32,000 bases of DNA from Candidatus Lokiarchaeum ossiferum (GCA_025839675.1 CP104013.1:210001-242000), one strand, 5' to 3'. Shown: positions 14,466-32,000, counted from the first letter of the stretch. Notes: a model not told the origin generated them from the letters alone. Program-made: numbers and translations.

Positions 14466-14496
14466 CATTCACTTATATTCAAGTGAATGCTTTTTT
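14466..14496 (+). terminator. hairpin plus T6 after the TPR-hdrB gene
   Basis: Arms CATTCACTT (14466-14474) and AAGTGAATG (14481-14489) are followed by TTTTTT (14491-14496). Confidence 0.5.
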
Positions 14497-14552
14497 AGAA
14501 ATGATAAATTTAACAAAATATTAGCACTTCGTAAAATAACGAGGAAATAACT

Positions 14553-15308
14553 ATGGCTTTCCCTAAACTATCTAAAGTAATTGACGAATCACAAATTAAA
14601 ATTGAGCAAAAATACTTAGTGAAAAAGTATGAGCTCATCTTAGATCGACTCAAATGTGTTGGATGTGGACAATGCAGTATTGTCTGTCCTAAAGACGCTA
14701 TTTTATTCGGTCCAGCTGCTGCTGTTTACGAAAATAAACCCAAAGATTTGAATGCCGCTGTTATTGATACAGTAGATGAAGAAAAATGTGTCTATTGCGG
14801 TACTTGCACCGTGTTCTGCCCCTTTGATGCCATTCATGTTTATGAAGATGGTGAAAAAATCAAAATGGAAGATTTGGATATTATCAAGCATAACTCCTTA
14901 CCAACCCTAAATGCAGAAATGGTGGCTTGTTCCAATTTAGGAAGAGATGCAAAAGTCTATTGGGAAGGAGAAATTGAAGTAAAATTCAAAATGCCAGAAG
15001 ATAAAACCGAATTCAAGCAAATCTATACTAATAAATGCCCAGGTGATTGTCACAAATGTGACCAAATTTGTCCTACTGATGCTATCAAGTTCCGCGAAAT
15101 GGAAGATGCATGGAAATCGAAAATTCTGATGGAAGTCGATGACGAAAAATGTATCAATTGTGGCGCTTGTGCTCTGGTCTGTCCTCAAGATTTTTATGCC
15201 GTTCGATGGACAAAAGTGAAAACTACTGGTGCTTACAACCAAATCTTCTGGGATCCAATCAAAGAAAAACTCTTGGGTCAAAGAGTGGTCTTTTCTAAAG
15301 AAGAATAA
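14553..15308 (+). CDS. polyferredoxin (4x CxxCxxCxxxCP)
   Basis: Motifs CVGCGQCSIVCP, CVYCGTCTVFCP, CPGDCHKCDQICP and CINCGACALVCP. Confidence 0.85.
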   Translation: MAFPKLSKVIDESQIKIEQKYLVKKYELILDRLKCVGCGQCSIVCPKDAILFGPAAAVYENKPKDLNAAVIDTVDEEKCVYCGTCTVFCPFDAIHVYEDGEKIKMEDLDIIKHNSLPTLNAEMVACSNLGRDAKVYWEGEIEVKFKMPEDKTEFKQIYTNKCPGDCHKCDQICPTDAIKFREMEDAWKSKILMEVDDEKCINCGACALVCPQDFYAVRWTKVKTTGAYNQIFWDPIKEKLLGQRVVFSKEE

Positions 15309-15320
15309 TTTGGTTCTCAC

Positions 15321-15329
15321 TTTTTTTTT
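15321..15329 (+). terminator. oligo-T (T9) tract after the polyferredoxin gene
   Basis: A T9 run starts 13 nt after the stop codon, which resembles an archaeal oligo-T termination signal. Confidence 0.4.
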
Positions 15330-15529
15330 CCCTCCTTTATGTGTTTGAAATACAGAGTTATAAGAAAATCATTCACTATTATTGAAGCAAAGAAAATTTA
15401 GGTAAAAAAAACCTTAATTAACCTTAGAAAAAAGAATTAGATTTCTTAAATTGTTTCAAAAAAAATGAAATCTTTACAATTCTATTTAAACCCCAAATCT
15501 ATAAATAAAATGTATTTTAGATCAAAAAT

Positions 15530-17227: not shown

Positions 17228-17236
17228 ATTCAATGC

Positions 17237-17261
17237 AAATTATAAGTTAATCTTATAATTT
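17237..17261 (+). terminator. perfect 10-bp A/T hairpin just after the kinase stop
   Basis: AAATTATAAG (17237-17246), loop TTAAT, CTTATAATTT (17252-17261). No clear T-run follows, so the function is uncertain. Confidence 0.3.
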
Positions 17262-17398
17262 AAGATGAATCAACCCTGGTAATATGTTGTTAGGAAACAA
17301 AATTTGATATACTCAAGTTCTTTCTCCAAAAATTTGAATAAAGTGAAAGTAAATACCGTTTGAATAAAGAAGAAAACTAATAAATAAAATGATTAACT

Positions 17399-18223
17399 AT
17401 GATTCCACCCCTGACACCCACTTTCACCCTTAACAATGGAATATCCATGCCTCGGGTTGGCTTAGGTACATACATGCTTTCAGGGACATTGGGCAAACTC
17501 ACAATGAAGCAAGCAATTAAATTAGGTTATCGATTGTTTGATACTGCAACTTTATATGGCAATGAGCAAGAATTGGGGCAATGTCTTGCTGAGTCAGGAT
17601 TATCACGGCAAGAATTTTTCATTACTACTAAAGTTTGGAACTCGGATCAAGGGTATGCTTCAACCTTGCGAGCTTTTGAGATAAGTCTTAAGCAATTAAA
17701 CTTGGAATATGTTGATTTATACTTAATACATTGGCCAGTACCAGGGAAACGAAAAGATACATGGCGTGCCTTAGAAAAATTATACTCTGATGAAAAATGC
17801 CGCGCAATTGGGGTGAGCAATTATTATATTCCCCATATTGAAGAGCTTTTAAGTTATGCTTTCATTCCCCCCATGGTGAATCAAGTGGAATTTAGCCCTT
17901 TTTTATTTCTTCCTGAACTTCTTACCTATTGTAAAAATCATGATATTCTTCTACAGTGTTATTCCCCTTTAACCCATGGCAATCGCATTTATGATTCTGG
18001 TATTCAATCTGTTGCCCAATCCTATCAGAAAACAGAAGCCCAAGTTCTGCTTAAATGGAGCTTGCAACATAATACCAGCGTGATTCCAAAAGCCTCCTCC
18101 AAAAAACATCTCGAAGAAAATATTACTCTGTTTGATTTCGAATTATCATCGTCCGATATGCTCCGTTTAGATCAATTGCATGAAAACTTACATACTGATT
18201 GGGATCCCAGCACAGTTTTGTAA
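17399..18223 (+). CDS. aldo/keto reductase (2,5-diketo-D-gluconate reductase-like)
   Basis: 274 aa. AKR catalytic-tetrad contexts are present: FDTATLYGNE (D, Y), ITTKVW (K) and LYLIHWP (H). Confidence 0.88.
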   Translation: MIPPLTPTFTLNNGISMPRVGLGTYMLSGTLGKLTMKQAIKLGYRLFDTATLYGNEQELGQCLAESGLSRQEFFITTKVWNSDQGYASTLRAFEISLKQLNLEYVDLYLIHWPVPGKRKDTWRALEKLYSDEKCRAIGVSNYYIPHIEELLSYAFIPPMVNQVEFSPFLFLPELLTYCKNHDILLQCYSPLTHGNRIYDSGIQSVAQSYQKTEAQVLLKWSLQHNTSVIPKASSKKHLEENITLFDFELSSSDMLRLDQLHENLHTDWDPSTVL

Positions 18224-18308
18224 GACTTGAAAAGCGATCGGCGCCCATGGATGTGAACCATCAAGTTTTTTGCCTATCATGATTTTTTATTATTTACTAT
18301 ATATCCAT

Positions 18309-18401
18309 GGCTCCGAGCGGCCGGGGTGGTCCCTGGCGCCGGACTTCAAATCCGGTCTATCCTCACCCGATTGGGGGTTCGATTCCCCCTCAGAGCCGCC
18401 A
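18309..18401 (+). tRNA. tRNA-Sec (anticodon UCA), encoded CCA end
   Basis: Hand fold: acceptor GGCTCCGAG/CTCAGAGCC (9 bp, one C-A mismatch). D-stem GCCGGGG/CCCTGGC (7 bp) with a 4-nt loop TGGT. Anticodon stem GCCGGA/TCCGGT (6 bp) with loop CT-TCA-AA. Long variable region. T-arm GGGG-TTCGATT-CCCC. Discriminator G plus CCA. The acceptor and T stems sum to 13 bp (9/4 or 8/5), the tRNA-Sec hallmark. Confidence 0.8.
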
Positions 18402-18404
18402 CAA

Positions 18405-18462
18405 AAGTTTAACTATGGTTAAACCTTTGAAGGTTAAACGATAGTTTAACGATGGTTTAAAC
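18405..18462. repeat. five phased GTTTAAC/GGTTAAAC/GGTTTAAAC motifs (~12-bp spacing)
   Basis: GTTTAAC 18407-18413; GGTTAAAC 18418-18425; GGTTAAAC 18432-18439; GTTTAAC 18444-18450; GGTTTAAAC 18454-18462. The array includes the tandem AACGATaGTTT AACGATgGTTT. Confidence 0.8.
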
Positions 18463-18544
18463 ACAAAGAAAATGTGATAACTATAATTATAGAAAGCAAA
18501 TTCTTTACAAAATTTGGATTTCATATTTCATTTTAGAACTAACT

Positions 18545-20122
18545 CTAATTTTTATTAATCTCTATTTCCAAACACGATCCATGATAAATATTTTGATTAT
18601 AAATTTTAAAAGCTGAGCTTTTTTTCAGAGTAATTTCCCAATCCATATCTTGAATTATAATAATTATTTTTCCTGTAAATTGGGACAACTCTGTTTTTGT
18701 AGGAATTATGGATGTCATCATCGATATACTAAAAGCAAATTGTGTTCCTAAGAATTTTAGGCTAATTGAAAACTCTTTCAATCCGATTATAATTTTTCCT
18801 TCATAATCCTTATCAAAATCTATTGTTGAAATTGAAATTTTTGCTAATAAATTAGGAGGAAAGAGAGGAAATGAATCTCTTATATATTGGTAAGGAGCAG
18901 AAATAAAAGCTCTAATCGAATGATTATATTCTTCATTTTTTTCTTTATTTAAAGATAATCGCCCATATTTATCCATATCAAAAAAGTCATCAAGATGAAT
19001 TAGTTTGAAATATAATTTTAATAACCATTCTTTAAATTCAGTATATTTATTAATAATATCTTGAACATCATGTAATTTACGAGATCCTTTTATAATTTCA
19101 TCAATCGATAATCCTTTATGAAATAAATTATTCCGAGTAGAATGCATAAAATCAATTAATTCTTCATCATAATTTATTTCATCTAATTCAGAACACATAA
19201 GTTTTATTTGATCCTTTATTCTTGGGAATTTCCATAATTCTTTACATATTATTTCTGATATTTTTCTCGGCGAATACTCTTTATAAATAATATCCTGCGT
19301 TCTTATCATTCTTTCTACTTTTTCTGTTAACTTATTCTTTTTTTCTTTAGAAATTGTGATCAATTTCTTTTTTTCCCAGTTTTTAATATTACTCCTGATT
19401 GCCTTGGTAATTTCTTGAATTTTAACTAAACCTTTGTTGTTAGTTTTTAGATTTTTTTTTAGATATCTATGAATTTTTTTTTTTAGCTTTTCTAATTTTT
19501 TCTCACTTATCAAAGTGTTTTGTTGTTTATTCTTGAAATAGGTGCTTGTAATATGTTCTAAAGATAACCAACCTAAACCTATACTTTGATCGATAGTATT
19601 TTGATTAAAACTTTGAATCAAAATTCTCAAGCGAGATGAGTAATCATTATTCTGAAAAAATAAATTCCATAATTGGGAAATACAAAACCGAAATAATTGA
19701 GGTGTACCTATTAAATATGGGATTCGAGCATAAGGTTTGTAAAATTCAATTTGAGAAGGATAACTTTCTAAAATTCTTACTACATTGTTTCTTGAATTGA
19801 AATGAAAACAATTGGTAATTTGAATACGATAATTCATTAATAATAAACATAATTCGGTAAATGGTGATAATAAAGCATAGACCTCATCAATTATTTTTAT
19901 TTCTTCAGGAAGATCAACATCTAAATATAACCAAATGTTAGAATTTACGTCCATCTTAAATCTATCTAACACATTTTCAGAAACTGGATGAGAATCATAA
20001 TATGATTTCATTCGGATATTTTCTTCAGGAGCTAAAATAAATTTTTCAAATGCATCTAATTCAATTTTTATTGGGAAATTAAGATGAATACCTCTTATTT
20101 TTACTAAGATTCGATTAAGCAT
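18545..20122 (-). CDS. hypothetical 525-aa protein with a HEPN-type Rx4H motif (candidate RNase toxin/abortive-infection effector)
   Basis: Last gene of the integrase operon. Motif HSTRNNLFHKG (R330-x4-H335, nt 19118-19135) matches the HEPN RNxxxH signature. It lies in a helical region after a Lys-rich segment. No other motif recognised. Confidence 0.4.
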   Translation of the reverse strand: MLNRILVKIRGIHLNFPIKIELDAFEKFILAPEENIRMKSYYDSHPVSENVLDRFKMDVNSNIWLYLDVDLPEEIKIIDEVYALLSPFTELCLLLMNYRIQITNCFHFNSRNNVVRILESYPSQIEFYKPYARIPYLIGTPQLFRFCISQLWNLFFQNNDYSSRLRILIQSFNQNTIDQSIGLGWLSLEHITSTYFKNKQQNTLISEKKLEKLKKKIHRYLKKNLKTNNKGLVKIQEITKAIRSNIKNWEKKKLITISKEKKNKLTEKVERMIRTQDIIYKEYSPRKISEIICKELWKFPRIKDQIKLMCSELDEINYDEELIDFMHSTRNNLFHKGLSIDEIIKGSRKLHDVQDIINKYTEFKEWLLKLYFKLIHLDDFFDMDKYGRLSLNKEKNEEYNHSIRAFISAPYQYIRDSFPLFPPNLLAKISISTIDFDKDYEGKIIIGLKEFSISLKFLGTQFAFSISMMTSIIPTKTELSQFTGKIIIIIQDMDWEITLKKSSAFKIYNQNIYHGSCLEIEINKN

Positions 20123-20157
20123 AAAAAAAGAGATATTTATTTCTAATTAAGCTTTTC

Positions 20158-21120
20158 CTAATAAGGGAAAAATTGATCATAAAGCTTTAATCTTTCTTTC
20201 CCTGATTTATCATTCTGCGTATATCGTTTAAGATATCTTTGGGCATTCACCCCAGATGGTGTTTGATTCAATAGAATTGAGCGAATACCTGTATCTAGCA
20301 ACCCGTTTTCAACCCAATGGCTATTAATTGCATCTCGGAACAAGTGGGGATTTACGTGGCGTTTCGGGTAATCAGAGAGTATTTTTCTTACCGTTTTAGT
20401 TTCAATAGGAAAGAGAAATTCTTGATCAGGGTTCTCGAACTGTAATTGCACTAGATATGATTCCAAGTGCACTTTGAATTTGCGAGGGAAGAAATACCGA
20501 TTCCATCCGGTTGATCCTTCTGTCGGTTTCTCTTGTGTTTGAAACGTACGATTCTTCATGTCTATATTTTTAATTTTTATCGCACATAAACCACCAACAC
20601 GACATCCTGAATAAGCTAACATAGAAACTAGTACATAATCTCGCATGGATCGATTCTGATAAAAATCCTCAATCTCAAAAATGTCTTGAAATGAAAGAGC
20701 ATCTCGTTCGACTTTTCCAGCAGTATCCGTAAATTTGAAAAAATCGTTTGAGAAGATATAACTGTAATCATAATCAACTTGTTTTTTATAAGCTCGTGAT
20801 TCGCCTAAGAGATATTTAATGAAAGCACTTAAATTCATTCTGTATTTGATTTTCACTTTATCTCGCAAAATTCGAGATTCTAAATGCTTGAAAAACGTTT
20901 TGAATTGATCGGGAGTTATTTCTAATACTGAATTGACTTCAGGAAAGTTTTCTTGGAAATATTTAAACCCGTAATAGCAATTCTGACTTATATTTTTCTT
21001 TGTTGCAGGGGATCGTTTAGATACGATAAATTCCTCAAATTTTACCTGATCTTTCGGTAAGACAACATGAGGTGTTTTTGGAAACACTTTTCCTAGATTT
21101 ACATTCATTTGCGATACCAC
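20158..21120 (-). CDS. tyrosine recombinase / phage-type integrase
   Basis: 320 aa. Catalytic-type contexts are present: AYSGCRVGGLCAIKIKNID (Arg), PHLFRDAINSHW (HxxR) and AQRYLKRY (Tyr). It is too divergent to be the chromosomal XerA type. Confidence 0.8.
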   Translation of the reverse strand: MVSQMNVNLGKVFPKTPHVVLPKDQVKFEEFIVSKRSPATKKNISQNCYYGFKYFQENFPEVNSVLEITPDQFKTFFKHLESRILRDKVKIKYRMNLSAFIKYLLGESRAYKKQVDYDYSYIFSNDFFKFTDTAGKVERDALSFQDIFEIEDFYQNRSMRDYVLVSMLAYSGCRVGGLCAIKIKNIDMKNRTFQTQEKPTEGSTGWNRYFFPRKFKVHLESYLVQLQFENPDQEFLFPIETKTVRKILSDYPKRHVNPHLFRDAINSHWVENGLLDTGIRSILLNQTPSGVNAQRYLKRYTQNDKSGKERLKLYDQFFPY

Positions 21121-21602
21121 CTCTTTCGAGCAGATTGCTCGATTTTGCCCGTTTTTTGTAATGTCACTAAAGATTCTAAAACTTTTGCAGGACTTTCATT
21201 ACAATAGGTTGCAATTTGGTTTAAAAACAAACGTTTTTCACCAAGATTAGAAAGGATTTGTTCTTCTAATGAAATATTGGTTTCACTAGGCTTATTTGAA
21301 AGATTTTGCATTAACATACTCATGCTAAATTCTTTATCTTCCAATTTTGAAACCAATTCAGAAATTTTCCCTAATTCTGTTAAAACGTTTGAAGACTTAC
21401 CATTTGATTGTGTTCGATTGTAGATGACATTATCAACGCAAAACATTATGAATTCAGAAATATTTTGGTTGTGCTCAAGAGCTTTCGCCTTGATTTGGGC
21501 TTTTTTTCCTTTTGAGATTTTGATACCGATGAAATCATCCTTCACAAGAGAAGGATAATGATATTCAGTATTTCTCTTGCTTTCATCAATTTTAGTTGCC
21601 AT
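21105..21602 (-). CDS. RHH-like N-terminus plus wHTH-like C-terminus DNA-binding protein (166 aa)
   Basis: The track lists 21105-21704. That 5' extension overlaps an unlisted RHH gene in another frame. The ATG at 21602 (MATKIDESK) lies inside that gene's stop region, which suggests translational coupling. RHH-like segment IGIKISKGKKAQIKAKALEHNQNISEFIMFCVDNV. wHTH-like segment LFLNQIATYCNESPAKVLESLVTLQKTGKIEQ. It overlaps the integrase start by 16 nt. Confidence 0.6.
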   Translation of the reverse strand: MATKIDESKRNTEYHYPSLVKDDFIGIKISKGKKAQIKAKALEHNQNISEFIMFCVDNVIYNRTQSNGKSSNVLTELGKISELVSKLEDKEFSMSMLMQNLSNKPSETNISLEEQILSNLGEKRLFLNQIATYCNESPAKVLESLVTLQKTGKIEQSARKRWYRK

Positions 21603-21756
21603 TATTTTCTTCTCCGTGGTTTTCGAGGAATTCGTATAAGACTTCTCGCACAACATCCGAGAAGTAATCAGCTTTGCGATGCGGTTTGTGTTGTTTGAAT
21701 ACATCCCGAACGTTTTCTAAGAGATCTTCACTTAGTTTTAGTGTGATTTTTTTCAT
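21592..21756 (-). CDS. ribbon-helix-helix (CopG/Arc-like) protein, 54 aa, not in the ORF track
   Basis: Hand translation: MKKITLKLSEDLLENVRDVFKQHKPHRKADYFSDVVREVLYEFLENHGEENNGN. This is a classic RHH pattern of a beta strand and two helices. It is the first gene of the minus-strand integrase operon. Confidence 0.7.
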   Translation of the reverse strand: MKKITLKLSEDLLENVRDVFKQHKPHRKADYFSDVVREVLYEFLENHGEENNGN

Positions 21757-21874
21757 GTTAGTCTCTACTTACTCTATAAGAAGTGTGAGGTTAAAAAGTT
21801 ACTATAATAGTGGACAAATATTCTACCTTAGGGATAACAATAAAACTTATGATTACTCGATTGTTACTACAAAT
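21757..21874. promoter_or_regulatory. divergent promoter region between two RHH genes
   Basis: AT-rich 118-bp gap with TATA-like TTACTATAATAG. It also has a TTAGGGATA motif (21828-21836) resembling the GTAGGGTA repeats at 27.3-27.7 kb. Confidence 0.4.
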
Positions 21875-22093
21875 ATGGTCGATTATAAATCTATGAAGAT
21901 TCCTATTAAAATTTGGAATACATTTGATGCGTATATTAAAACTCACACCACTTTGAACGATTCTGCTACGACTATGATTCATGAAGTCATTAAAAACAAA
22001 GCAAAAGAACTTCTTCAAGAAATGATAAAGGAAATGGAGGAAAAAAAAGCGAATTGGGAAACAGTTAGAGACCAACTTGATTCAATATCCTAA
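21875..22093 (+). CDS. small RHH-like protein (72 aa)
   Basis: This is an internal ATG of track ORF 21674-22093. The upstream part of that ORF overlaps the minus-strand RHH gene and the promoter gap. Sequence: MVDYKSMKIPIKIWNTFDAYIKTH...TTMIHEVIKNKAKELL. Confidence 0.5.
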   Translation: MVDYKSMKIPIKIWNTFDAYIKTHTTLNDSATTMIHEVIKNKAKELLQEMIKEMEEKKANWETVRDQLDSIS

Positions 22094-22261
22094 AATTTTA
22101 ATAAGTGAATCCAAACCAAGTTTTTTTAACCTTTCTTTAACTTCTTGTTGCAATTTTAAAATATCTTGCTTTAATTTTACATACTGTTTATAATACATAT
22201 CTAATTCAGAATCTTCAATTGGATCATCATTTGCGGTTTTTTCTTGTGTGTCGAGTGCCAT
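22082..22261 (-). CDS. small coiled-coil protein (59 aa), not in the ORF track
   Basis: Hand translation: MALDTQEKTANDDPIEDSELDMYYKQYVKLKQDILKLQQEVKERLKKLGLDSLIKILGY. It is convergent with the preceding gene. Confidence 0.4.
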   Translation of the reverse strand: MALDTQEKTANDDPIEDSELDMYYKQYVKLKQDILKLQQEVKERLKKLGLDSLIKILGY

Positions 22262-22683
22262 ATTTTTTCCCTGTGTTAGTATTTCTTAGCGAAGTTCAAA
22301 GACACATAATAAATATGAAAGTTATGCAAATGAACTTCTATAGTATAATATTAAATAAGAATAATTTAGTATTAAAAGGCTCTAATTGTGAGATAACAAT
22401 ATCACTTGATTAATCCACTAACAAATATTTTAGATCCATAAAATTACGTGAAATTTTAGGTGTTTATGAATATCCATAAACATTTTAAAAAAGAATCTAA
22501 AAATAGGGACTAATTATTAGTCTAAAAATAACCGACATATAAAAATAGGTGATATTTTCTGATTTAAAATCCTTCAATTTTCTCAAACGGTTCTATTCGC
22601 AGTAAACTAAGCCAGAATTGAACAAAATTTTCAAATTTGTCGACAAAAAATGGCCATGTAGGATAGGTAGAGTTAAAAAAATC

Positions 22684-22728
22684 ATATATAAACCTATTGA
22701 TCAATTTATAATCCATAGGTTTATATAT
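22684..22728. repeat. perfect 14-bp inverted repeat with a 17-nt spacer
   Basis: ATATATAAACCTAT (22684-22697) and ATAGGTTTATATAT (22715-22728), inside a ~750-bp ORF-free region. Confidence 0.8.
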
Positions 22729-23013
22729 TTAATGAATACTGACTTCAATTTCAACAGAAGAAGGATGAAATCTATTTGAGGTCCGACTAATATTTTTTTA
22801 AGGTCTTTATCTCAATTCATTGATTTTTACAACTTCATAATGGGCTACTACAATCTTTTAGAATGAGTTCAATTTTTCCAATATGCCTATAAATTACTTA
22901 GAATTCATCCGATTCTTTTCTAAAAAACTGTACTGTGCCGTTACTTTATAAGGAAGATATTGTTTGAGTATCATAGTGTTCAAAATGGGTACTAAACTCA
23001 CAGTGGTGTAAAT

Positions 23014-23196
23014 ATGGAAACTCTAACTCATGTGCGAATAAATCGACGTATTGCTCAAGAAACAAGAGAATTAGGATATACTCTAACTCCCTACATTGAA
23101 ATATTATTGAGGGAGAATAACCAACTTACCAGAGAAATTCGCAAAAGGCGATTTGAATCAGCATTAGAAAAAGCTAACGACCTGCTTCGAATTTAA
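23014..23196 (+). CDS. ribbon-helix-helix (CopG-like) protein, 60 aa
   Basis: METLTHVRINRRIAQETRELGYTLTPYIEILLRENN... fits a beta strand plus two helices. It is the first gene of the replication module. Confidence 0.65.
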   Translation: METLTHVRINRRIAQETRELGYTLTPYIEILLRENNQLTREIRKRRFESALEKANDLLRI

Positions 23197-23212
23197 ATAG
23201 GGGAAAAAACTC

Positions 23213-23509
23213 ATGAACACCCAAAAATCAACCTTAAAACACAAATTCACTCAACCTCCCAAGATAATCTCTGAGCAATCTTTCAAACGAGTGGATGCAA
23301 TTTGGGATTTAGGAGAAAAAACGGATGTTCATGAGTTTCAACTTCTTCCAATCCAAAAAAAACTAGTCTATTTTTTGAATATTATAACTCCAAATACTGC
23401 GTTTTTTGCACGAATAAGTCAAAAAGAAAAAGAAGCATTCTCAAGGTCTCCAGCCCTGAGAATGGGACGAATGATCACAAAGAAAGAATCAGTAAGTATA
23501 TTTACTTAA
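23213..23509 (+). CDS. hypothetical protein (98 aa)
   Basis: ORF 17 nt downstream of the RHH gene, same strand. No motif recognised. Confidence 0.5.
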   Translation: MNTQKSTLKHKFTQPPKIISEQSFKRVDAIWDLGEKTDVHEFQLLPIQKKLVYFLNIITPNTAFFARISQKEKEAFSRSPALRMGRMITKKESVSIFT

Positions 23510-23615
23510 TTCTTCCTTAAAAATATTTGTTATTGAGCTATCAATAGCTCATATGCGATGTTGATGATCGTTTCTAATCACACACTTTCTCTTTTTGAGC
23601 ACCTAAATATACTAA

Positions 23616-23852
23616 GTGATCACAATGATACAACAAGAAACAATAAAAAATACGCAAGAATTAACTCAAAAGCCGAACGCAAAGAAGGGAAGTTCACGGC
23701 TCCTCTTCTTTGCTAACAAATACGCAACTTTTCATTTTATTCAACACAAAAACGCATCTGCTAATTATTTTAAATTAGCATGGGCTAATAAAGTATCGCA
23801 CACCTCATTTGTACCGTTTTTTGTTGCTATCGTCATTGGAGGAATGAATTAA
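23616..23852 (+). CDS. hypothetical protein (78 aa; ATG alternative at 23625)
   Basis: Its stop TAA (23850-23852) directly abuts the ATG of the replication gene. The C-terminus is hydrophobic (FVPFFVAIVIGGM). Confidence 0.5.
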   Translation: MITMIQQETIKNTQELTQKPNAKKGSSRLLFFANKYATFHFIQHKNASANYFKLAWANKVSHTSFVPFFVAIVIGGMN

Positions 23853-26800
23853 ATGAAATCCGAAAATCAAGCGATCAACACTTCGAATCCGTTTAAGAAG
23901 AAAAATACACCCCATCTTAATTTTGTAGTTGGTTTAAATGGATCAATCTATAAAAAAGAAGACACTTTAAGAGAAAAATACAAAGAATTCTTTGAGAAAT
24001 ACAATCCAAAAACAAATTTTGGTGATATTTGCTTACATCACAAAGAATACTTAAAAGAAATCCCCTATGAAGACCGAAAGTGGATTCGATTTAGCCGACA
24101 ATTAAAAATTTGGCGAATTATGACATGTGCGAGTTTTTCCGACGATAGATTACAATTTAGAACTGTTCCTGTCAGCAAAAATGGATTTATTTCTTGTGGA
24201 ACTCAACCTGAATATCAAGGACGATCTTTGGTATTTTTGGATTACGATGTGCCAAAAAATGAAGAAGTCACGTTTAATCTGGAAGCATTAGATAAAGCTT
24301 TAGGAGAATATGCTGATACTTTCACACAAGCAACTCCTACTGGAGGATTTCACAAAGGATATTATTTAAAAGAGCCGTATTTTGAGAGGGATGGAAAAAA
24401 GATAGATATCACTCCTGCAAATACTCAAGAAAAATCGCTTGAAGATCATACCGAATTAACTCAGAAACTAGGGTTGCAAGCAGTTGATATTAGAGGAAAA
24501 GGAGGCAAAATTTTTGCTTCAGGAACAAAATTTGTAGAACATGGGTTAAAAGAATATAAAATCGTGAATGCAAATCTTCCAATGGAAATAACCTTGCAGG
24601 AATTTAGTGAAATCACAGGACTATTCCTCCCAAAAGAATTATACGATCCATTTGAAAATCTGAATAAAGCTCAAAATCGGAAACGGGTAAGTAAATTGAA
24701 AAAGAAAACTTCTTCGCCAAATTCAATAAATTCCGATTCAAGCGAGATTCCTATGAAGATTCGAGAAGGGTTTAAGGATATATTAGAAGGAACAGTCGCT
24801 ATTGAAGATCTTAAACTCGAAAAATTTAAGATATTTTCAGCTCTCTTCCGGGAATGTCTAAATTGTGAAATGATACAAGAAGAAATCATTTCCTTTCTTG
24901 AACTGAACCAAGGTAGTTTTAAACGGTCAGAAACAGAAAATAATCTTAATTCACAAGAAAAATCTGATAATTGGGAAAAAAGACCAACTAAAGAGCATTA
25001 TTCTGAAATATTTTCAGAGTACCTAATCAAAAAAGCACAGACACAAATAAGTAAAATACTTGAAACACTTGAACCTGAGAATTTTACTGATTCCCAAATT
25101 TTAGAATTAATCCATTTAGCAGATACAACAGCAGATAGAATTAAACTTAAGAAAAAGCTGAAGGAAAAAATTGAGTTAACTAGTAAAGAATTCGATAAAT
25201 ATGTATCCTTATTTACAAAAAAACAAAACGAACTAAATGATAGGGCTAAGGAGGTTTACTATAAATCAAAAGAAGAATTAACTGTAAAATTTGACAAAGG
25301 AGATGATCGGAATAAATTCGACCAAGCTTTTAAACTAGAGAAATGCTCTCTTAAAGGGATTCACAGAGAAAAAGTAGGAAAGGAATTTGAATCCTTTTCC
25401 TTCATTGAAATTGTGGATGGATGTAAAAAATTCCAAGAGATCACCGCTCGTTTACGAAATCAAACTCAAAACTCTAATAGAATTTCGGTAGATACCCGAA
25501 ATAACATATTTGCACATGCTTTTAAAGATGTGTTATTGGAAAATGGACGGTTTATTTATGATATAGAAAACACACCTTATTTCTTTCGGAATAAAGAGAA
25601 GGATGTGTTAGAGATCGGGGTTAAAAAAGAACATGCTGAATTTTTAGCCTATATCTCAAAATGGGGGATAAATCATAAAAATAGGGAAGGAAACGTAATA
25701 ATTCAAGAACTGGTGAACTATTGTCTGAAGATGGGAGAAAAAGTTCAAACATATCAACAATCCCATTATGATAAGCTGAGAAAACAACTCTATATCTTTG
25801 ACGGAGTAAATCAAATCTTTCGACTTGATGGCAATCAGATAGTCAAAATTGATAATGGGGAAGATGGAGTGTTTTTCAGATCTGCATTCCGTAATAATCC
25901 TATAGAATTAGTAGATGAAATTGATGAAAAAAGGATTTTTTATGGGAAATTACGTGATGGAAAGTATCTATTTCAACGTATGACTTCATGTCGAATCAAT
26001 TTTAGTGAGACCGAACTATCTATTGAACAAAAGGCATTTCTTTACGATGTTTATTTTATTGGGATTATGTTTAGAGAGCTTTTCTCAGAACGTGCAGGTG
26101 CTCTTTTTATTGGAGATACAGGATCAGGAAAAACTTTAGCTCACTCCTATTTTAGCTTATTTTACACCAATGAAGAACCATTTTCACTTACCAAAGATCA
26201 GCGAGATTTTCGAACCACGTTGAATCATTTTGAATTGGCAAATTTTGAGAATGTAGATACAAATTATAATAATGAATTTGATGATATTATCGCTTCAACA
26301 ATAACAGGAAGTGGAAATACTCCCCTTAGGGAATTACATACCACAAAAAAATCAAGTATTCTCAAACCAAAGACTTGGATCATATTTGACGCACGAACGC
26401 CCCGTTTTTTGCGAGCAGACAATTTGAATCGATTTGTAATGTTCAAACTTGATTCATTTCAAAACTCTATTGGCGAATTCGAAGTTATACAAAGAGATGT
26501 ATTTAAGAAAGTATTTGAAGAGCCAGCTATTCTTAATGAGATTTGGAGCGAATTATTTGTGGTGTTCAATCAAATTATAAGAAAACTACAAAGCACTAAT
26601 AACTCTGAAATTAAGAAATATCCTTTAAGAATCGCTGAGTTTGCCCGGTTCATGGAAATCTGTGGGGATATTTTTGAAAAAGATGAGAAATTTGTGAAAA
26701 ATACTATGAGGGCTTTAGCGAAGGAACAACAAGAGATCGGAAATCAAGGTACCCCATTAGATACAATTTTTCAAAATCTTAAAGGTGAATGGGAAAAACA

Positions 26801-27254
26801 TTGCAATGGAAAATCATTCATTATTCCTGAACCAAAAAATCTTGAAAAAAAAATGTATTTCTCAGCAACAATATTACATGAACTCTGTCAGAAACATTTT
26901 CCTAGTGATTATCACTACAAATCAGCTCAAGCTTTTGGAAGAGCATTGAATGAACGAAAAGCATATTTATACAAAGAATATGGATTTAGAGTGTTCAAAA
27001 CCAAAAAGAAAACCCTTTATTATTTTGAAGATCGTGAGATTTACACAGGAATTGTCCAAAATATTATTGAAAAACTAAAAGCGAAAAGCAAATTCACTAT
27101 CTCAGCCAAAGAGATTGCAAAGGAAATTAGAGTAAATTCAATCAAACAAAGCGAAATATTAAATTACTTAAAAATATTATCCCAAGCTCAGATCAAACAA
27201 TTTAAGATAACCAATATGAAGGAAAACGGACAATTTTTAATTGTCCGAGCCTAA
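23853..27254 (+). CDS. replication protein: N-terminal PrimPol (archaeo-eukaryotic primase superfamily) fused to a C-terminal P-loop (SF3/D5-like) helicase
   Basis: PrimPol motifs: LVFLDYDV (DxD, D130 at 24240-24242), TPTGGFHKGYY (sxH) and AVDIRGKGGKIFASGT. Walker A GDTGSGKT (26112-26135). Walker-B-like KTWIIFDA. A long K/E-rich linker separates the two domains. Confidence 0.8.
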   Translation: MKSENQAINTSNPFKKKNTPHLNFVVGLNGSIYKKEDTLREKYKEFFEKYNPKTNFGDICLHHKEYLKEIPYEDRKWIRFSRQLKIWRIMTCASFSDDRLQFRTVPVSKNGFISCGTQPEYQGRSLVFLDYDVPKNEEVTFNLEALDKALGEYADTFTQATPTGGFHKGYYLKEPYFERDGKKIDITPANTQEKSLEDHTELTQKLGLQAVDIRGKGGKIFASGTKFVEHGLKEYKIVNANLPMEITLQEFSEITGLFLPKELYDPFENLNKAQNRKRVSKLKKKTSSPNSINSDSSEIPMKIREGFKDILEGTVAIEDLKLEKFKIFSALFRECLNCEMIQEEIISFLELNQGSFKRSETENNLNSQEKSDNWEKRPTKEHYSEIFSEYLIKKAQTQISKILETLEPENFTDSQILELIHLADTTADRIKLKKKLKEKIELTSKEFDKYVSLFTKKQNELNDRAKEVYYKSKEELTVKFDKGDDRNKFDQAFKLEKCSLKGIHREKVGKEFESFSFIEIVDGCKKFQEITARLRNQTQNSNRISVDTRNNIFAHAFKDVLLENGRFIYDIENTPYFFRNKEKDVLEIGVKKEHAEFLAYISKWGINHKNREGNVIIQELVNYCLKMGEKVQTYQQSHYDKLRKQLYIFDGVNQIFRLDGNQIVKIDNGEDGVFFRSAFRNNPIELVDEIDEKRIFYGKLRDGKYLFQRMTSCRINFSETELSIEQKAFLYDVYFIGIMFRELFSERAGALFIGDTGSGKTLAHSYFSLFYTNEEPFSLTKDQRDFRTTLNHFELANFENVDTNYNNEFDDIIASTITGSGNTPLRELHTTKKSSILKPKTWIIFDARTPRFLRADNLNRFVMFKLDSFQNSIGEFEVIQRDVFKKVFEEPAILNEIWSELFVVFNQIIRKLQSTNNSEIKKYPLRIAEFARFMEICGDIFEKDEKFVKNTMRALAKEQQEIGNQGTPLDTIFQNLKGEWEKHCNGKSFIIPEPKNLEKKMYFSATILHELCQKHFPSDYHYKSAQAFGRALNERKAYLYKEYGFRVFKTKKKTLYYFEDREIYTGIVQNIIEKLKAKSKFTISAKEIAKEIRVNSIKQSEILNYLKILSQAQIKQFKITNMKENGQFLIVRA

Positions 27255-27275
27255 TTTTTTACATTTTTTATCTTT

Positions 27276-27689
27276 GTAGGGTACTGATTAGAAGCTCTAT
27301 CAAACAATGTCGAAAAAAAGTGTTTTTTATACACAGAGGGAAATTATCGTAGAGATGAAAAACTACCCTAACATCTTCCTTTATAAATCCCTAACGTGCC
27401 AAATTGAATATATGCTTGTTTTAGTTCCGTTGAGGACAAAAAAAGAAAAAAAAAGTAGGGTAGTGCTTGTCAATATCTATTTTATAGCCATATATATTAT
27501 GGGTGTGGGTTGTTTCTACCATGTTTTTTCTACACGTATAGAAAATGACTTTAGTAGAACCCTACTGTTTTTCTTCTCTTTATCCAATACCACACAACAT
27601 AACTCATTAACTCTCACTTACTACCGTAGTCCTTTTTAAACAAAAATGCAGGGTATTGGGAGTGCTTTATATAGAAACAAGTAGGGTAC
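27276..27689. repeat. iteron-like cluster of GTAGGGTA motifs (candidate replication origin or operator array)
   Basis: GTAGGGTAC 27276-27284 (+). TTAGGGTAG on the minus strand (core 27364-27370). GTAGGGTAG 27455-27463 (+). GTAGGGTT on the minus strand (27558-27565). Degenerate GCAGGGTAT 27648-27656 (+). GTAGGGTAC 27681-27689 (+). Copies 3 and 6 share the extension GTAGGGTAnnnnTTGTCA. Confidence 0.75.
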
Positions 27690-27752
27690 GTTTGTCACTC
27701 TAATGACTGTGATATTTTATCAAGCAATCAATGAGAAAGAAAATGGTTAAAC

Positions 27753-28108
27753 TCAATTCATATCTCTTTTAACGTTCAATGAAAGACTTTCCTTCATAAT
27801 TTCATCCTTCTTCTTGGCTAAAATGAGAGTAACAGCATTGTGACACCAAGTACAAACGTTTTGAAATGGTTCAATTTTTAATGTGCCACACTCATGACAA
27901 ACAGCTCGACCGCATATTTCACACACCTATATTCGCCTTCATTCACAGAATTATAACAGTGACAGCAAGTTGGAATAATAATAAAGTCAGAATTTAAAAT
28001 AGCTTCCATAATGTAATAAAGACAACACAAATATTTAAATCCACGTTGTTTTTCGCCTATTTTCGTGCGATAAATTCTCAATTTGGATGAATTGCTTAGT
28101 GAAATCAC
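27753..28108 (-). pseudogene. Cys-rich zinc-finger gene split by a frameshift (76-aa ORF 27878-28108 plus 57-aa GTG ORF 27753-27926)
   Basis: The upstream ORF ends ...PTCCHCYNSVNEGEYRC.... A second frame reads VCEICGRAVCHECGTLKIEPFQNVCTWCHNAV.... Joining them near 27927-27935 gives a regular CxxC-x10-CxxC-x4-CxxC-x11-CxxC pattern. Confidence 0.45.
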
Positions 28109-28575
28109 TCCATTTTGATAATAAGTTCAATTTATTTTGCTTTCACACTTTTCTTGGGATGACCAAACCAAAATAATTTTTTGTGAGGGTGATCCCTCCT
28201 GCTAAGCTAAAAATACCTGCTGGCTGAAAAATGGATGTTTTGTTTCAATAATTAGGTACGCATTATCTTTTTTAGAATGATAACCAAAAAAAGAAGGAAG
28301 TACAGTGTAAATTCGAAAAGATGACCTTTAATACTCAGATGTTTAGGAATATCTATTATTTTTCTTTGTTTCTTTCAATTTCTCAATAAAAATTGCTGAT
28401 GGTTCAAGAAAGATTTCAAAATAGTCTTTTAAAAAATCATTTATATCAAAACCATTTTCTTCAACATGAAGGAATTTCAATTCTAATTCATTTATAGACA
28501 AGCATAAAATTGAATTTATCTGGATTTGAGATAGTAGTTTGAAATCAATAAAATTCTTATCTTTCAGGTAATTTG

Positions 28576-29124
28576 CTACCTTTTTTGGTGGAAACGTAGT
28601 ACAATATAATAAATAATTAAGCCAAATGCAAAAATCAAACCTCCTTTTATTAAAAGATCATATCCAAATTCATCCATCCAATCCTGTGCATAAATGAGAC
28701 CAAATAAATAAATTGTAATTATTGATACAAGTCCAATATTTATGATTAATCCTGAAAGATTTTTCTTTGTTTTGCCACTCGAAGCAATATATACAATCGC
28801 AATTATTAATTCCAGACTTAAAAATGCGAATAAACCAAGATAAAATTCAAAGAAGAACTGAATGACAATGAGAATCCCAAAAACTCTATCACACCATTCT
28901 AAATAAGAAAAAATACCCTCATTTGATTTTTCAATTTTGTATATTCCAAAGAAGCACATAAAAGAAAGTAAAATTGAGATGCTAAAACCTATTCCGAGAT
29001 ATAACGATTCATAACCCGGGAGAAAAAATTCTTGCGACTCTTTTTTTAGTAGTTCCCATAGAAATCCGGCAAATATAATATAATCAACAAAAGAAATAAT
29101 TATTTTTCTCACATTTTTGGACAT
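28576..29124 (-). CDS. polytopic membrane protein (about 5-6 TM helices), unknown function
   Basis: 182 aa, almost entirely hydrophobic helices (IIISFVDYIIFAGFLWELL; LYLGIGFSISILLSFMCFFGIY; GILIVIQFFFEFYLGLFAFLSLELIIAIVYI and others). Confidence 0.65.
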   Translation of the reverse strand: MSKNVRKIIISFVDYIIFAGFLWELLKKESQEFFLPGYESLYLGIGFSISILLSFMCFFGIYKIEKSNEGIFSYLEWCDRVFGILIVIQFFFEFYLGLFAFLSLELIIAIVYIASSGKTKKNLSGLIINIGLVSIITIYLFGLIYAQDWMDEFGYDLLIKGGLIFAFGLIIYYIVLRFHQKR

Positions 29125-29469
29125 GATTTTATTTCTAGTTTGGATTATTTATATGTGAATATACAATTATTTAATGAATAAATTCTAATTTTATTCGAAT
29201 GGAAAGAAAATTTGTAGATATTTCTTCAAACATGCAATATTTTTCAAGTCAAAGTCTTTAATATCCACTAGCTTCTATTTTCCAATTATGTGTTTTCATT
29301 TTCTACTTCATTACATCTCTCATATTCCATGAAATCTTGTGATTCACATGTTTGGAATATCACATGCAAATTCAGACAAATATCGTTAGTTTTGTTATCC
29401 ACTTTACTTTATCTAAATGATTAATGAGACAGTAAATGGATTTATATGATTTTATATCAGTAATAGTGC

Positions 29470-30138
29470 ATGGCGAAAATTTTTATCTCTCATAGTCAAC
29501 GAGATGTGAAAATAAAACAATTCTTCCATGAAATTTTTGCAAATACTAAGATACAAGCAAAATTTGAAGAATTTGATCAAGTTCTAGGACACAAAATCAA
29601 TTCAAACAAAATTGAAACGGATATTGTTTCATGCAATGCAGTTTTTATTTTATTGAGCGAGAATACAGATAATTTAAAACACACTCGGGATTGGATTGCG
29701 TGGGAATCTGGAAGTAGTAAAGAAAAGGAAATATGGTTATTTGTGCCCCAAAAAATTAATCGAAAATTGAATATAGTGATTCCAAAATTTAAACATTTAG
29801 TTCTTTTTGATTATACTGACTATTGGAAACAATATATTTATCAAATTGTTGAATCTTATGATAATTCAAACGTAATGGCTGTTTCAGCTGCAACAACAGG
29901 TATCGGTGCATTAATTGGTGGGACTTCGAGTGAAGATAATTCTTCAGATAGAACAATAATTGGAAGTGCAATTGGTTTATTAGGGGGATTAATCTTGGGA
30001 CAAGTGTTAATGACAAAAGCACCTAAAGGATGTAAGATTGAATGTTCCACTTGCTCTTCTATTTATACAATTCATACACGAGTACGTGAATTTAGATGTC
30101 CTGTATGCAATGCACAGCTTCATTTTATTGAAAATTAG
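29470..30138 (+). CDS. TIR-like (DUF1863/ThsB-like) domain protein with Gly-zipper TM segment(s) and a C-terminal zinc ribbon
   Basis: N-terminus KIFISHSQRD...AVFILLSENTDNLKHTRDWIAWESG...IWLFVPQ follows the TIR-like strand/helix pattern, with a W-x-x-E candidate catalytic Glu (E79, nt 29704-29706). Gly-zipper segments GIGALIGG and IIGSAIGLLGGLILGQVLM. Zinc ribbon CSTC-x17-CPVC. Confidence 0.5.
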   Translation: MAKIFISHSQRDVKIKQFFHEIFANTKIQAKFEEFDQVLGHKINSNKIETDIVSCNAVFILLSENTDNLKHTRDWIAWESGSSKEKEIWLFVPQKINRKLNIVIPKFKHLVLFDYTDYWKQYIYQIVESYDNSNVMAVSAATTGIGALIGGTSSEDNSSDRTIIGSAIGLLGGLILGQVLMTKAPKGCKIECSTCSSIYTIHTRVREFRCPVCNAQLHFIEN

Positions 30139-30267
30139 TAAAAAAACATTTCCACTAATAAAATCGTATTAAATATGCTTTTTTCCTTCACTTTTAGCCG
30201 TTATGTATTCCAATTCATTGAGTTTATCAGTACGTATATATTTAAGGCAGAGCGATAATTGAAGATC

Positions 30268-30540
30268 ATGAACAATAAGACAGAGAAAGAAACTTATTAT
30301 TCTGAAAAACTCCAAAATAGAGTTAAAGAATTAAAAAAAGCAAATAAAATGAAGGATCTCTTCTTTTTAGGCAAAGAAAGATTCGGAATGCGTACAGTTG
30401 AAAATTTATTCTGGCCTAATACATACCCTGAGCCGATTGATGAAGAGAAATGGATTAAATTGATGGATCAGATTCTCCATGAAGGATTATCTGCCGATGT
30501 CAATTTCGTTCCTTTTGATTTGAACAATCAAGATATTTAA
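30268..30540 (+). CDS. hypothetical protein (90 aa from the ATG; the track starts at TTG 30259)
   Basis: ORF with protein-like composition. No motif recognised. Confidence 0.45.
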   Translation: MNNKTEKETYYSEKLQNRVKELKKANKMKDLFFLGKERFGMRTVENLFWPNTYPEPIDEEKWIKLMDQILHEGLSADVNFVPFDLNNQDI

Positions 30541-30644
30541 TTATATCTCATGATTAGTAATAATTTCAGGATTAATGCAGTTAGCAATCTAAAAAACTCT
30601 CACCCTAACAAACTTTTTGAACAATTCGTTTGATTCCTCTAATT

Positions 30645-30794
30645 ATGAACACTCGAAAAGCAACAAAAAAGGAAATAGAATTTGAAAATGCTTCGTTTTT
30701 GAAGAAATTTTTTTTGACCTTAAAAGAAAACCCGATTTACCATGTACCACTAATCATAATTGTGTTCTACCTAGTATATGTTTCTATTTTTTAA
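30645..30794 (+). CDS. possible small membrane protein (49 aa), not in the ORF track
   Basis: MNTRKATKKEIEFENASFLKKFFLTLKENPIYHVPLIIIVFYLVYVSIF, with a single C-terminal hydrophobic helix. Confidence 0.25.
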   Translation: MNTRKATKKEIEFENASFLKKFFLTLKENPIYHVPLIIIVFYLVYVSIF

Positions 30795-30822
30795 GTTGAG
30801 ATTGAATTGGAGTGATAACTCA

Positions 30823-31212
30823 TCAATTTCTAATTTTACCCTCAGCAATAGCCTGAATGTCATCTAATCCCGACAAAAATCCATCAGCAACCCGAATCGA
30901 ATTGGGAATAGATTTCAAAATATCAGATTTAATCAAATCGAAATAGAGTTGGCGAAATTTCTCCCGAATTTCCTTATTGGCGAGATGAGGGTAACACTCT
31001 TGAAATGCACCTATATAAACCATTGATTCATGAGGTTTGACAATAGTATTCCGCAATTTCTTCAAATCTCGATTCGACAGGCCAGAATGGAATTGTTTCT
31101 TGAGCTGTTCGTTCACAATGTCGTTTGAATGGCCATCCACGAGTAATTTTAGTGCAATTCTCTTTTTTTGATCCCTGAGTTTTTTTTCCACAATTGGTAT
31201 TATCACGACCAA
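30823..31212 (-). CDS. hypothetical protein (129 aa, non-ATG start)
   Basis: The ORF has only TTG/GTG starts near its 5' end. A possible HTH-like segment is present (HSNDIVNEQLKKQFHSGLSNRDLKKLRN). No firm motif. Confidence 0.4.
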   Translation of the reverse strand: MVVIIPIVEKKLRDQKKRIALKLLVDGHSNDIVNEQLKKQFHSGLSNRDLKKLRNTIVKPHESMVYIGAFQECYPHLANKEIREKFRQLYFDLIKSDILKSIPNSIRVADGFLSGLDDIQAIAEGKIRN

Positions 31213-31342
31213 TTATTTAACACTTTTGTATTAGGGATCCAGAATTGGATCATTTGCAGATAATCAGAATTATTGTCAATTTGAATAAAAAGATAAAAAT
31301 ATTTATTTCTGAGAATTATACATATAATAAATGATAATATAA

Positions 31343-32000
31343 TGGGAACACTTTTCAGATTTCAGATTCCAAAAACATTCAAAAAAAATATTCAAGATTT
31401 GCTCTCAATATCTGAAAGCAATAGGAAGAAATTTTTAGAGCAAATTCAAATGGCTTCTCCCACTTTGGAGATCCAAGAACTAATTGATTGCTCAGAAAGT
31501 GAATTACAATATCCATCCCAAATGTTAATGTTCCTTTCAATGATTTACAGGATTTTTAAAGAATCGAAAACAAATTTGGGAGATTTTAGAATTTCTTTGG
31601 AAGATGCTATTAATGAGCTAGGGATATCTAAAGAACATGAAAAATACTCAGATATAATCAATTTTTTCATGGAAAGCATCCAACTTGATAATACTCTGGG
31701 GATTTCATCTAAAGCAAATGCAACAATGATAGATCATTCTCAAATAATAAGAAAAACGAGAATTTTAACTGATATTAGACCTCTTTTTCAAGATAATTTT
31801 GATGAATCAGTTAAAACAGGTGTCATTTATCATATGCTAAAATTAACCACTCGTCAGAATAAAATAGAGAAAAATCAATACATCGCATTTGATTTCGAGG
31901 ATTTGGTAAATTTAAAAAATACTATTGACAGAGCTTTAAGGAAAGAAAAAAATATTCGCCAATCACTTAATGATTGGATTATTTTAAGTTATTATGATGA
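31343..32000 (+). CDS. hypothetical protein, 5' part (continues beyond the right window edge)
   Basis: Open frame from the ATG at 31343 to the window end (219 codons, MGTLFRFQIPKTFKKNIQDLL...). It is not in the track because it has no stop in the window. No motif recognised. Confidence 0.55.

Follow-up and report, generated by a model that had tools for sequence, protein, structure and literature searches.

A probable plasmid-like integrative element adjoining the tRNA-Sec gene of Candidatus Lokiarchaeum ossiferum, with a diverged relative at the same junction in a second strain

The DNA analyzed here is a 32,000-nucleotide (nt) stretch of the chromosome of Candidatus Lokiarchaeum ossiferum strain B35 (CP104013.1:210001-242000), henceforth the window, which carries a gene for selenocysteine tRNA (tRNA-Sec). 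The region from position 18402 rightwards, which starts at the base following this gene, is read with good confidence as an integrated plasmid-like mobile element that was placed at the tRNA-Sec 3′ end by its own integrase. Positions are window coordinates of B35, and those beyond 32000 are window-equivalent. A first-pass annotation of the window had proposed an integrative element adjoining tRNA-Sec; this proposal finds support in the left junction and in the evidence for site specificity, short of proof in the classical sense. The features of the locus are collected in Table 1.

The strongest evidence for this reading comes from a second L. ossiferum strain, B36, described in a 2026 preprint. 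CP163304.1 is taken as the B36 chromosome, and its version of the locus is designated L021. A search with the window integrase gave a 74%-identical protein on CP163304.1, accompanied by the same host genes and the same tRNA-Sec and followed by a different element. The left host flanks of the two strains are 99.4% identical overall, and their alignment shows the left junction to be the last base of tRNA-Sec. To the right, gene order is common to the two elements up to the small zinc-ribbon gene past the origin, and the replication proteins of B35 (1133 amino acids, aa) and B36 (1171 aa) are unalignable (BLASTP E = 0.088). Conserved synteny of the same genes next to tRNA-Sec, which the first-pass annotation had named as an outcome speaking against an element, is not what B36 displays: an integrase is present at tRNA-Sec there, but it is a different relative and is accompanied by different cargo, a different replication gene, and different iterons.

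The two elements are also old. The synonymous divergence (dS) of the integrase gene between B35 and B36 is 3.07 versus 0.107 for the adjacent host reductase gene, which makes the elements far older than the split of their hosts. On this comparison, two diverged, related elements occupy one tRNA-Sec 3′ junction in B35 and B36. Old divergence of the elements together with an identical junction is the pattern expected of an integrase family that targets the tRNA-Sec 3′ end.

The window integrase is 100% identical to NEF87_000194 and matches PF00589 at 35.8 bits (cut-off 27.1), phrog_1 at 2.7e-15, and archaeal XerA (5hxy) at 7.8e-6, which bears out the divergent tyrosine integrase called at 20158-21120 on first reading. 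Residues R174, K198, H259-x-x-R262, and Y296 are invariant among six members of the integrase family that share 40–74% identity. The open reading frame (ORF) is intact (316–320 aa) and collinear with its homologs, and because the gene is intact, the integrase is not of the self-splitting SSV type, in which attP falls within the integrase gene and integration leaves two gene fragments. The gene is directed towards the junction, with its stop codon 1.76 kb from the tRNA-Sec end. Relative to the B36 copy, the ratio of nonsynonymous to synonymous divergence (dN/dS) is 0.056 (dN 0.17, dS 3.07), and by this measure the gene is under purifying selection.

The integrase start is overlapped by a gene for a NikA-like protein of the ribbon-helix-helix (RHH) type, a candidate directionality factor or regulator. 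Its NikA-like match has an E value of 0.052 in the window protein and is weak in the homologs too. The NikA-like/integrase gene pair recurs in B36 and on contigs L013 and L026. A 15.7-kb environmental contig combines a replication gene, small ORFs, the NikA-like gene, the integrase gene, and variable genes, with a DUF5906 protein of 591 aa, and a 3.1-kb contig carries the NikA-like/integrase/variable-gene part of the module. The three small genes that follow at 21592-22261 have no Pfam match and are RHH-like by eye only. Of the at least three or four RHH regulators originally counted in the element, one, the NikA-like protein, thus has weak profile support, and the others are by-eye calls.

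Between the tRNA gene and the cargo slot lies the left arm of the element. A 23-nt unit with a GTTTAAC/GTTAAAC dyad occurs in it twice, and of the ten GTT[TA]AAC motifs counted over 33.7 kb, five lie in 18407-18455. The integrase or its partner protein probably binds at these units. The arm is better kept between B35 and B36 (86%) than the integrase gene (77%), which suggests that it functions as a protein-binding site; the simplest candidates for the bound protein are the integrase and the NikA-like protein. The same palindromes also bear on a different account, in which the element does move but recombines at a short core within the dyad-bearing DNA right behind the tRNA gene, and adjacency to tRNA-Sec is incidental. 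The palindromes CAAAAGTTTAAC and GTTAAACCTTTG start one base past the CCA and resemble paired recombinase half-sites, several relatives also start with NAAAAGT or similar directly past the CCA, and no tRNA-derived repeat was found. This account is nevertheless very unlikely: the arm differs by 14% between B35 and B36 from its first base and behaves as element DNA, the GTT[TA]AAC motifs do not recur on the right side of the element, and a relic on contig L012, described below, contains the tRNA-Sec 3′ terminal bases. Moreover, the half-site spacer is 3–4 nt, shorter than the overlap used by tyrosine recombinases, which is usually 6–8 nt.

Several observations weigh against integration at tRNA-Sec by this enzyme; they concern the classical signs of integration, one catalytic position, codon usage, a divergence step in the host flank, and the modest score of the L012 relic. 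The search for an attachment (att) repeat relied on exact and 3-mismatch patterns, a repeat finder, BLAST with short words, and scans by local alignment of the tRNA together with the arm. Over 15.3 kb of B35 and 22.7 kb of B36, no direct repeat of the 3′ part of tRNA-Sec was detected, and local alignment over the same distances gave nothing scoring 22 or more. The earlier remark that no second copy of the tRNA 3′ segment lies in the window is confirmed by the pattern and repeat searches. None of the relatives yielded an empty tRNA-Sec site: B36 is occupied, and those of Promethearchaeum are ~70% identical and on short contigs. Classical proof is wanting because att repeat, empty site, and excision are all missing. 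The usual His/Trp catalytic position of the integrase is occupied by an invariant Gln (Q286), an assignment made by alignment to XerA only. Synonymous codon usage does not differ significantly between element and flank, as a distance as large as the observed one arises in 183 of 2000 block permutations. Finally, B35 and B36 diverge by 0.2% up to 17550 and by 4.4% from 17551 on, a step that falls within the host aldo-keto reductase gene (17399-18223), which is the last host gene before tRNA-Sec. This step looks, from the alignment, like a homologous recombination breakpoint, and one strain probably received the ~0.8 kb of host DNA next to the tRNA gene, along with the resident element, from a lineage that was ~4% diverged. 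Given the step, homologous replacement of the entire locus accounts for the difference between B35 and B36 better than recent integration does. The difference reflects two lineages with different family members at the site and is not evidence for recent integration.

If turnover at the locus relies on homologous recombination in the flank, the region could be a fixed, immobile variable or defense island in which the integrase is a relic and the tRNA gene a mere anchor. Such an island is in keeping with the recombination breakpoint at 17551 inside a host gene, with the lack of a detected attR, with host-like codon usage, with an unrelated integrase fragment 18 kb into the B36 island, and with defense-like cargo in both strains (a TIR-like protein in B35; an Mrr-type nuclease and a 1525-aa Schlafen/NACHT protein in B36). 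It is unlikely, however, on account of what has been retained. The integrase is full length, its catalytic residues are family-invariant, and its dN/dS is 0.056; the arm, at 86% identity against 77% for the integrase gene and with all else lost, has the conservation expected of a functional site; both elements keep a complete replication gene with matching iterons; and alignability ends exactly past tRNA-Sec rather than at an arbitrary point. At L021 13464-18418, 13–18 kb into the B36 island, a 1525-aa Schlafen AlbA_2/NACHT-like protein is followed by a 93-aa C-terminal integrase fragment. This fragment is unrelated to the window integrase, and it suggests that the B36 island consists of several elements or remnants in tandem, the second of which is degraded.

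Traces of the tRNA-Sec 3′ end were also sought beyond the intact gene. The sequence CCCCTCGAG occurs at 32982-32990 (contig L010, 14621-14629) on the tRNA strand, in a non-coding tail and ~28 nt past TTTAAACC. It is the only CCCCTC in the 15.3 kb to the right of tRNA-Sec, and the 9-mer arises in 17 of 2000 shuffles; the L012 relic contains it as well. As a decayed attR, it is a weak candidate. Alignments of the B35 non-coding tail to the L012 relic and to the arm stay within the shuffle range.

Contig L012 stems from a related sequencing run and encodes proteins that are absent from the NCBI records of B35 and B36; for this reason, it is ruled out as a continuation of the B35 island. It carries a 231-aa truncated fragment of a 64%-identical paralogous integrase. 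Approximately 3.1 kb past the 3′ end of this fragment, and oriented relative to it as tRNA-Sec is to the integrase of the window, CCCCTCgAGAGCCGCC matches the last 15–16 nt of tRNA-Sec with one extra base; GTTTAAC-type dyads precede it (relic with dyads at 13782-13891, minus strand). The alignment score of the relic, 26 versus a maximum of 25 in 20 shuffles, is modest alone; the relic carries weight because the tRNA-like fragment, the dyads, and the integrase fragment co-locate. It is read as a decayed tRNA-Sec 3′ end near a related integrase and lends weaker support to the proposed target. The neighbors on L012 include an HpaII-type restriction-modification pair, an OLD-family ATPase-nuclease, and a second AAA_15/AAA_21 ATPase.

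Searches with the tRNA-Sec 3′ end retrieved MK-D1, two Promethearchaeum metagenome-assembled genomes, and one uncultured archaeon among species-representative genomes, as well as four short contigs from the metagenomes of the Joint Genome Institute (JGI). No integrase was found downstream of tRNA-Sec in these relatives within the few hundred bases covered. On JGI contig L022 (1228-1293), from another Lokiarchaeon, CAAAAGTGAAATCCTTGTTAAATTTTTGA stands immediately 3′ of tRNA-Sec; judged by eye, it is ~68% like the B35 arm over 31 nt and hints at a related element there. The Promethearchaeum-type contigs L024 and L025 share the same 20 nt upstream of tRNA-Sec and are unrelated from the first base past the CCA.

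The gene-content switch at tRNA-Sec that the first-pass annotation had described is evident from profile searches. To the left lie ordinary host genes, many of them redox genes, namely those for AOR (aldehyde:ferredoxin oxidoreductase), HdrA/B/C-like Fe-S proteins, a hybrid histidine kinase, and the aldo-keto reductase; to the right, most ORFs belong to no Pfam, PHROG, or PADLOC family. Composition shifts at the same point. The GC content is 34.8% to the left and 30.2% to the right, 4.5 points lower in the element, and the difference lies mainly at codon positions 1 and 2. Lys, Asn, and Ile together make up 21.9% of residues to the left versus 26.4% to the right, coding density is 91% versus 74%, and median gene length is 275 versus 128 aa. 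The Lys/Asn/Ile-rich proteins and longer intergenic gaps seen on first reading are accordingly real. Composition and codon usage indistinguishable from the flank, the other outcome named on first reading as speaking against an element, was likewise not obtained: GC, amino acids, and coding density all shift at tRNA-Sec, whereas synonymous codon usage alone is not distinguishable. At the far left of the window, a single ORF of more than 1560 codons spans 3-4682 on the minus strand and continues past the window edge.

The tRNA-Sec gene at 18309-18401 (plus strand) is the sole tRNA found by ARAGORN, and it matches Rfam RF01852 at 57.6 bits (gathering score 47). Its 9-bp acceptor stem contains a C:A mismatch (18314, 18392). 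The mismatched base at 18392 was considered as a mark of element DNA and ruled out, as it is common to eight of eight tRNA-Sec copies recovered from Lokiarchaeal relatives. Logan contigs of run SRR22273277 break within the tRNA-Sec T-arm, and the same contigs are present in three samples. The left contig stops at 18388 and the element contig begins at 18362, an overlap of 27 nt. With 31-mers, such a break fits the 33-nt segment 18359-18391 occurring in two contexts of the sample; the second context was not found in these data.

The element pairs its integration module with a divergently oriented replication module, and the gap between the two (22262-23013) is probably a control region. The window replication protein is 100% identical to NEF87_000202. 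AEP-like motifs and a Walker A motif (GDTGSGKT) can be read in it by eye, and its N-terminus matches PF09250 (Prim-Pol) at 20.5 bits, under the Pfam cut-off of 22.8. A word-indexed search presented the protein as an orphan, a status ruled out by an exhaustive HMMER search that shows the C-terminal half to be widespread, with 955 homologs of residues ~540–980. In 25 aligned homologs, the partners of this region include primases of the Toprim/DnaG, AEP-TOTE, and NrS-1-like kinds as well as DUF5906 and VapE-like domains. Designation as a primase-helicase replication protein is justified by the 955 homologs, the fusions to primases, and the DUF5906/VapE-like matches. The PrimPol-helicase protein of the first-pass annotation therefore stands through its helicase-type half, which is fused to primases in homologs, with a Prim-Pol match that stays below cut-off.

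The iteron-like array reported earlier is likewise present right after the replication gene, as six of the ten GTAGGGTA matches in the window (at most one mismatch) lie within the 413 nt of 27276-27688. This cluster is a putative replication origin. B36 has an iteron of unrelated sequence, AAGGTTGGCAA, at the same place past its own replication gene: at least ten AAGGTTGGCAA/TTGCCAACCTT sites occur in both orientations at L021 7745-8185, directly past the B36 DUF5906 replication gene. The zinc-ribbon gene that comes next corresponds to L021 8223-8387, with 58% identity over 55 aa (tblastx).

The cargo slot between arm and integrase holds an orphan gene in B35, which has the lowest GC content in the window (24.9%), and a 551-aa Mrr-type nuclease gene instead in B36. 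To the right of the origin, the product of 29470-30138 has TIR_2, ThsB_TIR, Gly-zipper, and Zn-ribbon Pfam matches, all under cut-off, and is possibly a membrane-associated defense effector carried as defense cargo. The combination of TIR, glycine zipper, and zinc ribbon is an unusual architecture.

For approximately two thirds of the genes, no family could be detected, and the structural proteins of Asgard viruses are poorly covered by profile libraries, so the region could in principle be a temperate virus (provirus) with capsid and packaging genes hidden among the orphans to the right of the replication module. At 15 kb or more, the element is comparable in size to the 16-kb Lokiarchaeum virus. 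What can be recognized, however, is an integrase, RHH-like regulators, a primase-helicase with iterons, and defense-like cargo. This is the make-up of archaeal integrative plasmids, the “cryptic integrated elements”. No PHROG or Pfam match to a capsid, portal, terminase, or packaging ATPase was found, though divergent capsids are conceivable. Searches of IMG/VR with tRNA-junction patterns gave no match, and a scan of the same database with the integrase alignment gave three weak partial matches to 32-residue generic motifs. A provirus is thus distinctly unlikely. The sole cultivated Lokiarchaeum virus, whose capsid protein was found only via structure prediction, is described in the B36 preprint. 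The same preprint places the 16-kb B36 provirus (Fylgjavirus 1) at 4.36 Mb, outside tRNA genes, and notes, in general terms only, that the two strains differ in mobilome and defense content. Fylgjavirus 1 sits at another locus, is unrelated to the one described here, and is ruled out as this element.

The element extends past 32000, one of the two possibilities raised on first reading for its right end. Logan contig L010, from a run of the B35 culture, covers 18362-33685 and adds 1.7 kb of element DNA past the window. It contains an adjacent DUF5678-like/retropepsin-like gene pair, whose Pfam matches are just under cut-off; the retropepsin-like aspartic protease reads IDTGAD. An 830-nt non-coding tail follows NEF87_000209 up to 33685. 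The element is at least 15 kb long, and its far end is either beyond 33685 or decayed.

Table 1. Features of the tRNA-Sec locus of B35 and their conservation in B36 (window coordinates; an empty cell means that no entry applies)
Position	Strand	Feature	Basis or remark	B35 versus B36
10409-17550				14 mismatches (0.2%)
17551-18299				33 mismatches (4.4%) in ~750 nt
18309-18401	+	tRNA-Sec, anticodon TCA, 3′ CCA gene-encoded (18399-18401)	host side of left junction (attL)	93/93 identical
18402		first base past the CCA		mismatch
18402-18480	+	left arm of element, 79 nt, palindrome-rich	repeat finding	68/79 (86%) identical
300 nt past 18480				50%, random level
18545-20122	-	cargo slot, 525-aa orphan gene	no family match (Pfam, PADLOC, PHROG)	
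20144-22277		integrase and three small genes		77% identical DNA
20158-21120	-	tyrosine integrase NEF87_000194, called product 316 aa from ATG at 21108	Pfam, PHROG, XerA	
21105-21704	-	NikA-like (RHH-type) protein, called product 165 aa (21105-21602), overlaps integrase start	weak NikA-like match	
21592-22261	both	three small genes, 54 aa (-), 66 aa (+), 59 aa (-)	gene calls	kept in B36
22262-23013		long intergenic gap between divergent integration and replication modules	short inverted repeats	gap equivalent in B36
beyond 22277				no DNA-level alignment
23014-23852	+	three small orphan genes, 60, 98, and 75 aa, ahead of replication gene	no family matches	
23853-27254	+	replication protein NEF87_000202, 1133 aa	primase-polymerase-like N-terminus and P-loop helicase-type NTPase	
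27276-27688		iteron cluster, six GTAGGGTA-type sites in both orientations	directly after replication gene stop codon	
27753-27926	-	57-aa zinc-ribbon protein	weak zinc-ribbon matches	last gene collinear with B36 element
28576-29124	-	182-aa orphan, read as multi-pass membrane protein	DUF2070 (predicted membrane protein) match at 0.078 only	
29470-30138	+	TIR-like protein, 222 aa, glycine-zipper segment, C-terminal zinc ribbon	PADLOC ThsB TIR-like at 3e-5	
30268-32000		orphan genes: 90 aa (+), 127 aa (-), 223 aa (13 nt beyond window end)		
32026-32856 (L010 13665-14495)		DUF5678-like 132-aa gene (C-terminus) and retropepsin-like 139-aa gene NEF87_000209	adjacent pair	

Taken as an integrated plasmid-like element, the region would have a free form that is a circle replicating from the iteron origin via the primase-helicase. 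Its attP would consist of the GTTTAAC-dyad arm and a copy of the tRNA-Sec 3′ end. The integrase, probably aided by the overlapping NikA-like protein, would recombine attP with the 3′ terminal part of tRNA-Sec, such that tRNA-Sec is regenerated at attL while a partial copy of it moves to the far end, where this copy would lie past 33685 or have decayed. Successive elements would accumulate at the tRNA-Sec site, and the locus would also be swapped between strains via homologous recombination in the flank. More tentatively, the region may represent a still-active Lokiarchaeum family of small self-replicating integrative plasmids that use the tRNA-Sec 3′ end as att site and have a swappable cargo slot with some defense content; this extension is possible and rather doubtful at present.

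Archaeal mobile elements routinely insert at tRNA genes, and cases are known from Asgard archaea as well. Were tRNA-Sec confirmed as the target, two domains of life would have arrived independently at the same rare, single-copy tRNA. To our knowledge, no genetic tools exist for the cultured Lokiarchaeon host, and the intact integrase, defined arm, replication protein, and origin are a possible starting point for developing them. Should the family still be active, its integrase, arm, replication gene, and iteron origin would be ready parts for a first integration or shuttle vector, and comparison of B35 with B36, a natural pair, shows which of the parts can be exchanged. The locus also illustrates strain variation in Asgard archaea, in the form of a tRNA-anchored island with defense-like genes that is exchanged together with ~0.8 kb of flanking host DNA.

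Among known systems, the selC (tRNA-Sec) gene of bacteria is a classic hotspot for islands and phages with P4-type integrases. Pf phages, too, integrate at tRNA-Sec (PMC7549136). The Lokiarchaeum element resembles the bacterial selC islands in that a tyrosine integrase lies near the tRNA-Sec 3′ end, content varies between strains, and different elements are found at one site. It differs in belonging to another domain of life with a structurally different tRNA-Sec and in having an integrase closest to the archaeal XerA type. Att duplication defines the bacterial selC cases, whereas in the Lokiarchaeum element no such repeat was found within the DNA covered.

Within the Asgard archaea, Heimdallarchaeia harbor elements at tRNA genes, including HeimV1 at tRNA-Gly(CCC) and the aloposons (PMC8813620). 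HeimV1 is a virus whose integrated and circular states were detected by PCR, and aloposons are defined by tandem giant genes (PMC8813620). The element described here is like these in its Asgard host, its adjacency to a tRNA gene, and the derivation of its boundaries from two closely related complete genomes. Unlike them, it lacks tandem giant genes or a demonstrated circle, and no genes shared with them were detected. Diverse integrated elements have also been described in Atabeyarchaeia (PMC11529989).

The closest counterparts in organization include the integrated elements of Thaumarchaeota (PMC6563490) and the pT26-2 family of Thermococcales and Methanococcales (PMC6972569), which combine an intact tyrosine integrase with a primase-helicase. 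Common to these archaeal integrative plasmids and the Lokiarchaeum element are a tRNA gene site, a tyrosine integrase, small RHH-type regulators, a large primase-helicase fusion, a repeat-rich origin, many orphans, variable cargo, and the absence of capsid genes. No sequence relationship to the Thaumarchaeota or pT26-2 elements was detected past generic domains, and no pT26-2 core genes were seen. Set beside archaeal integrative plasmids, the Lokiarchaeum element is marked by an integrase gene that is unsplit by integration and by its target, tRNA-Sec; a term search of the pT26-2 paper (PMC6972569) found no mention of tRNA-Sec or selenocysteine. The replication protein is like that of pRN1-type Sulfolobus plasmids (PF09250) in joining primase-polymerase-like and P-loop helicase-type domains and in being accompanied by small RHH-like regulators. 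It departs from the pRN1 type in its Prim-Pol match under the Pfam cut-off, in having no PDB sequence match, and in a helicase half that is related to DUF5906/VapE. Full-text searches of the literature, with subscription journals mostly outside their scope, found neither an archaeal element at tRNA-Sec nor a description of this one. The element is thus of a known kind, and its target, tRNA-Sec, appears to be newly reported for archaea.

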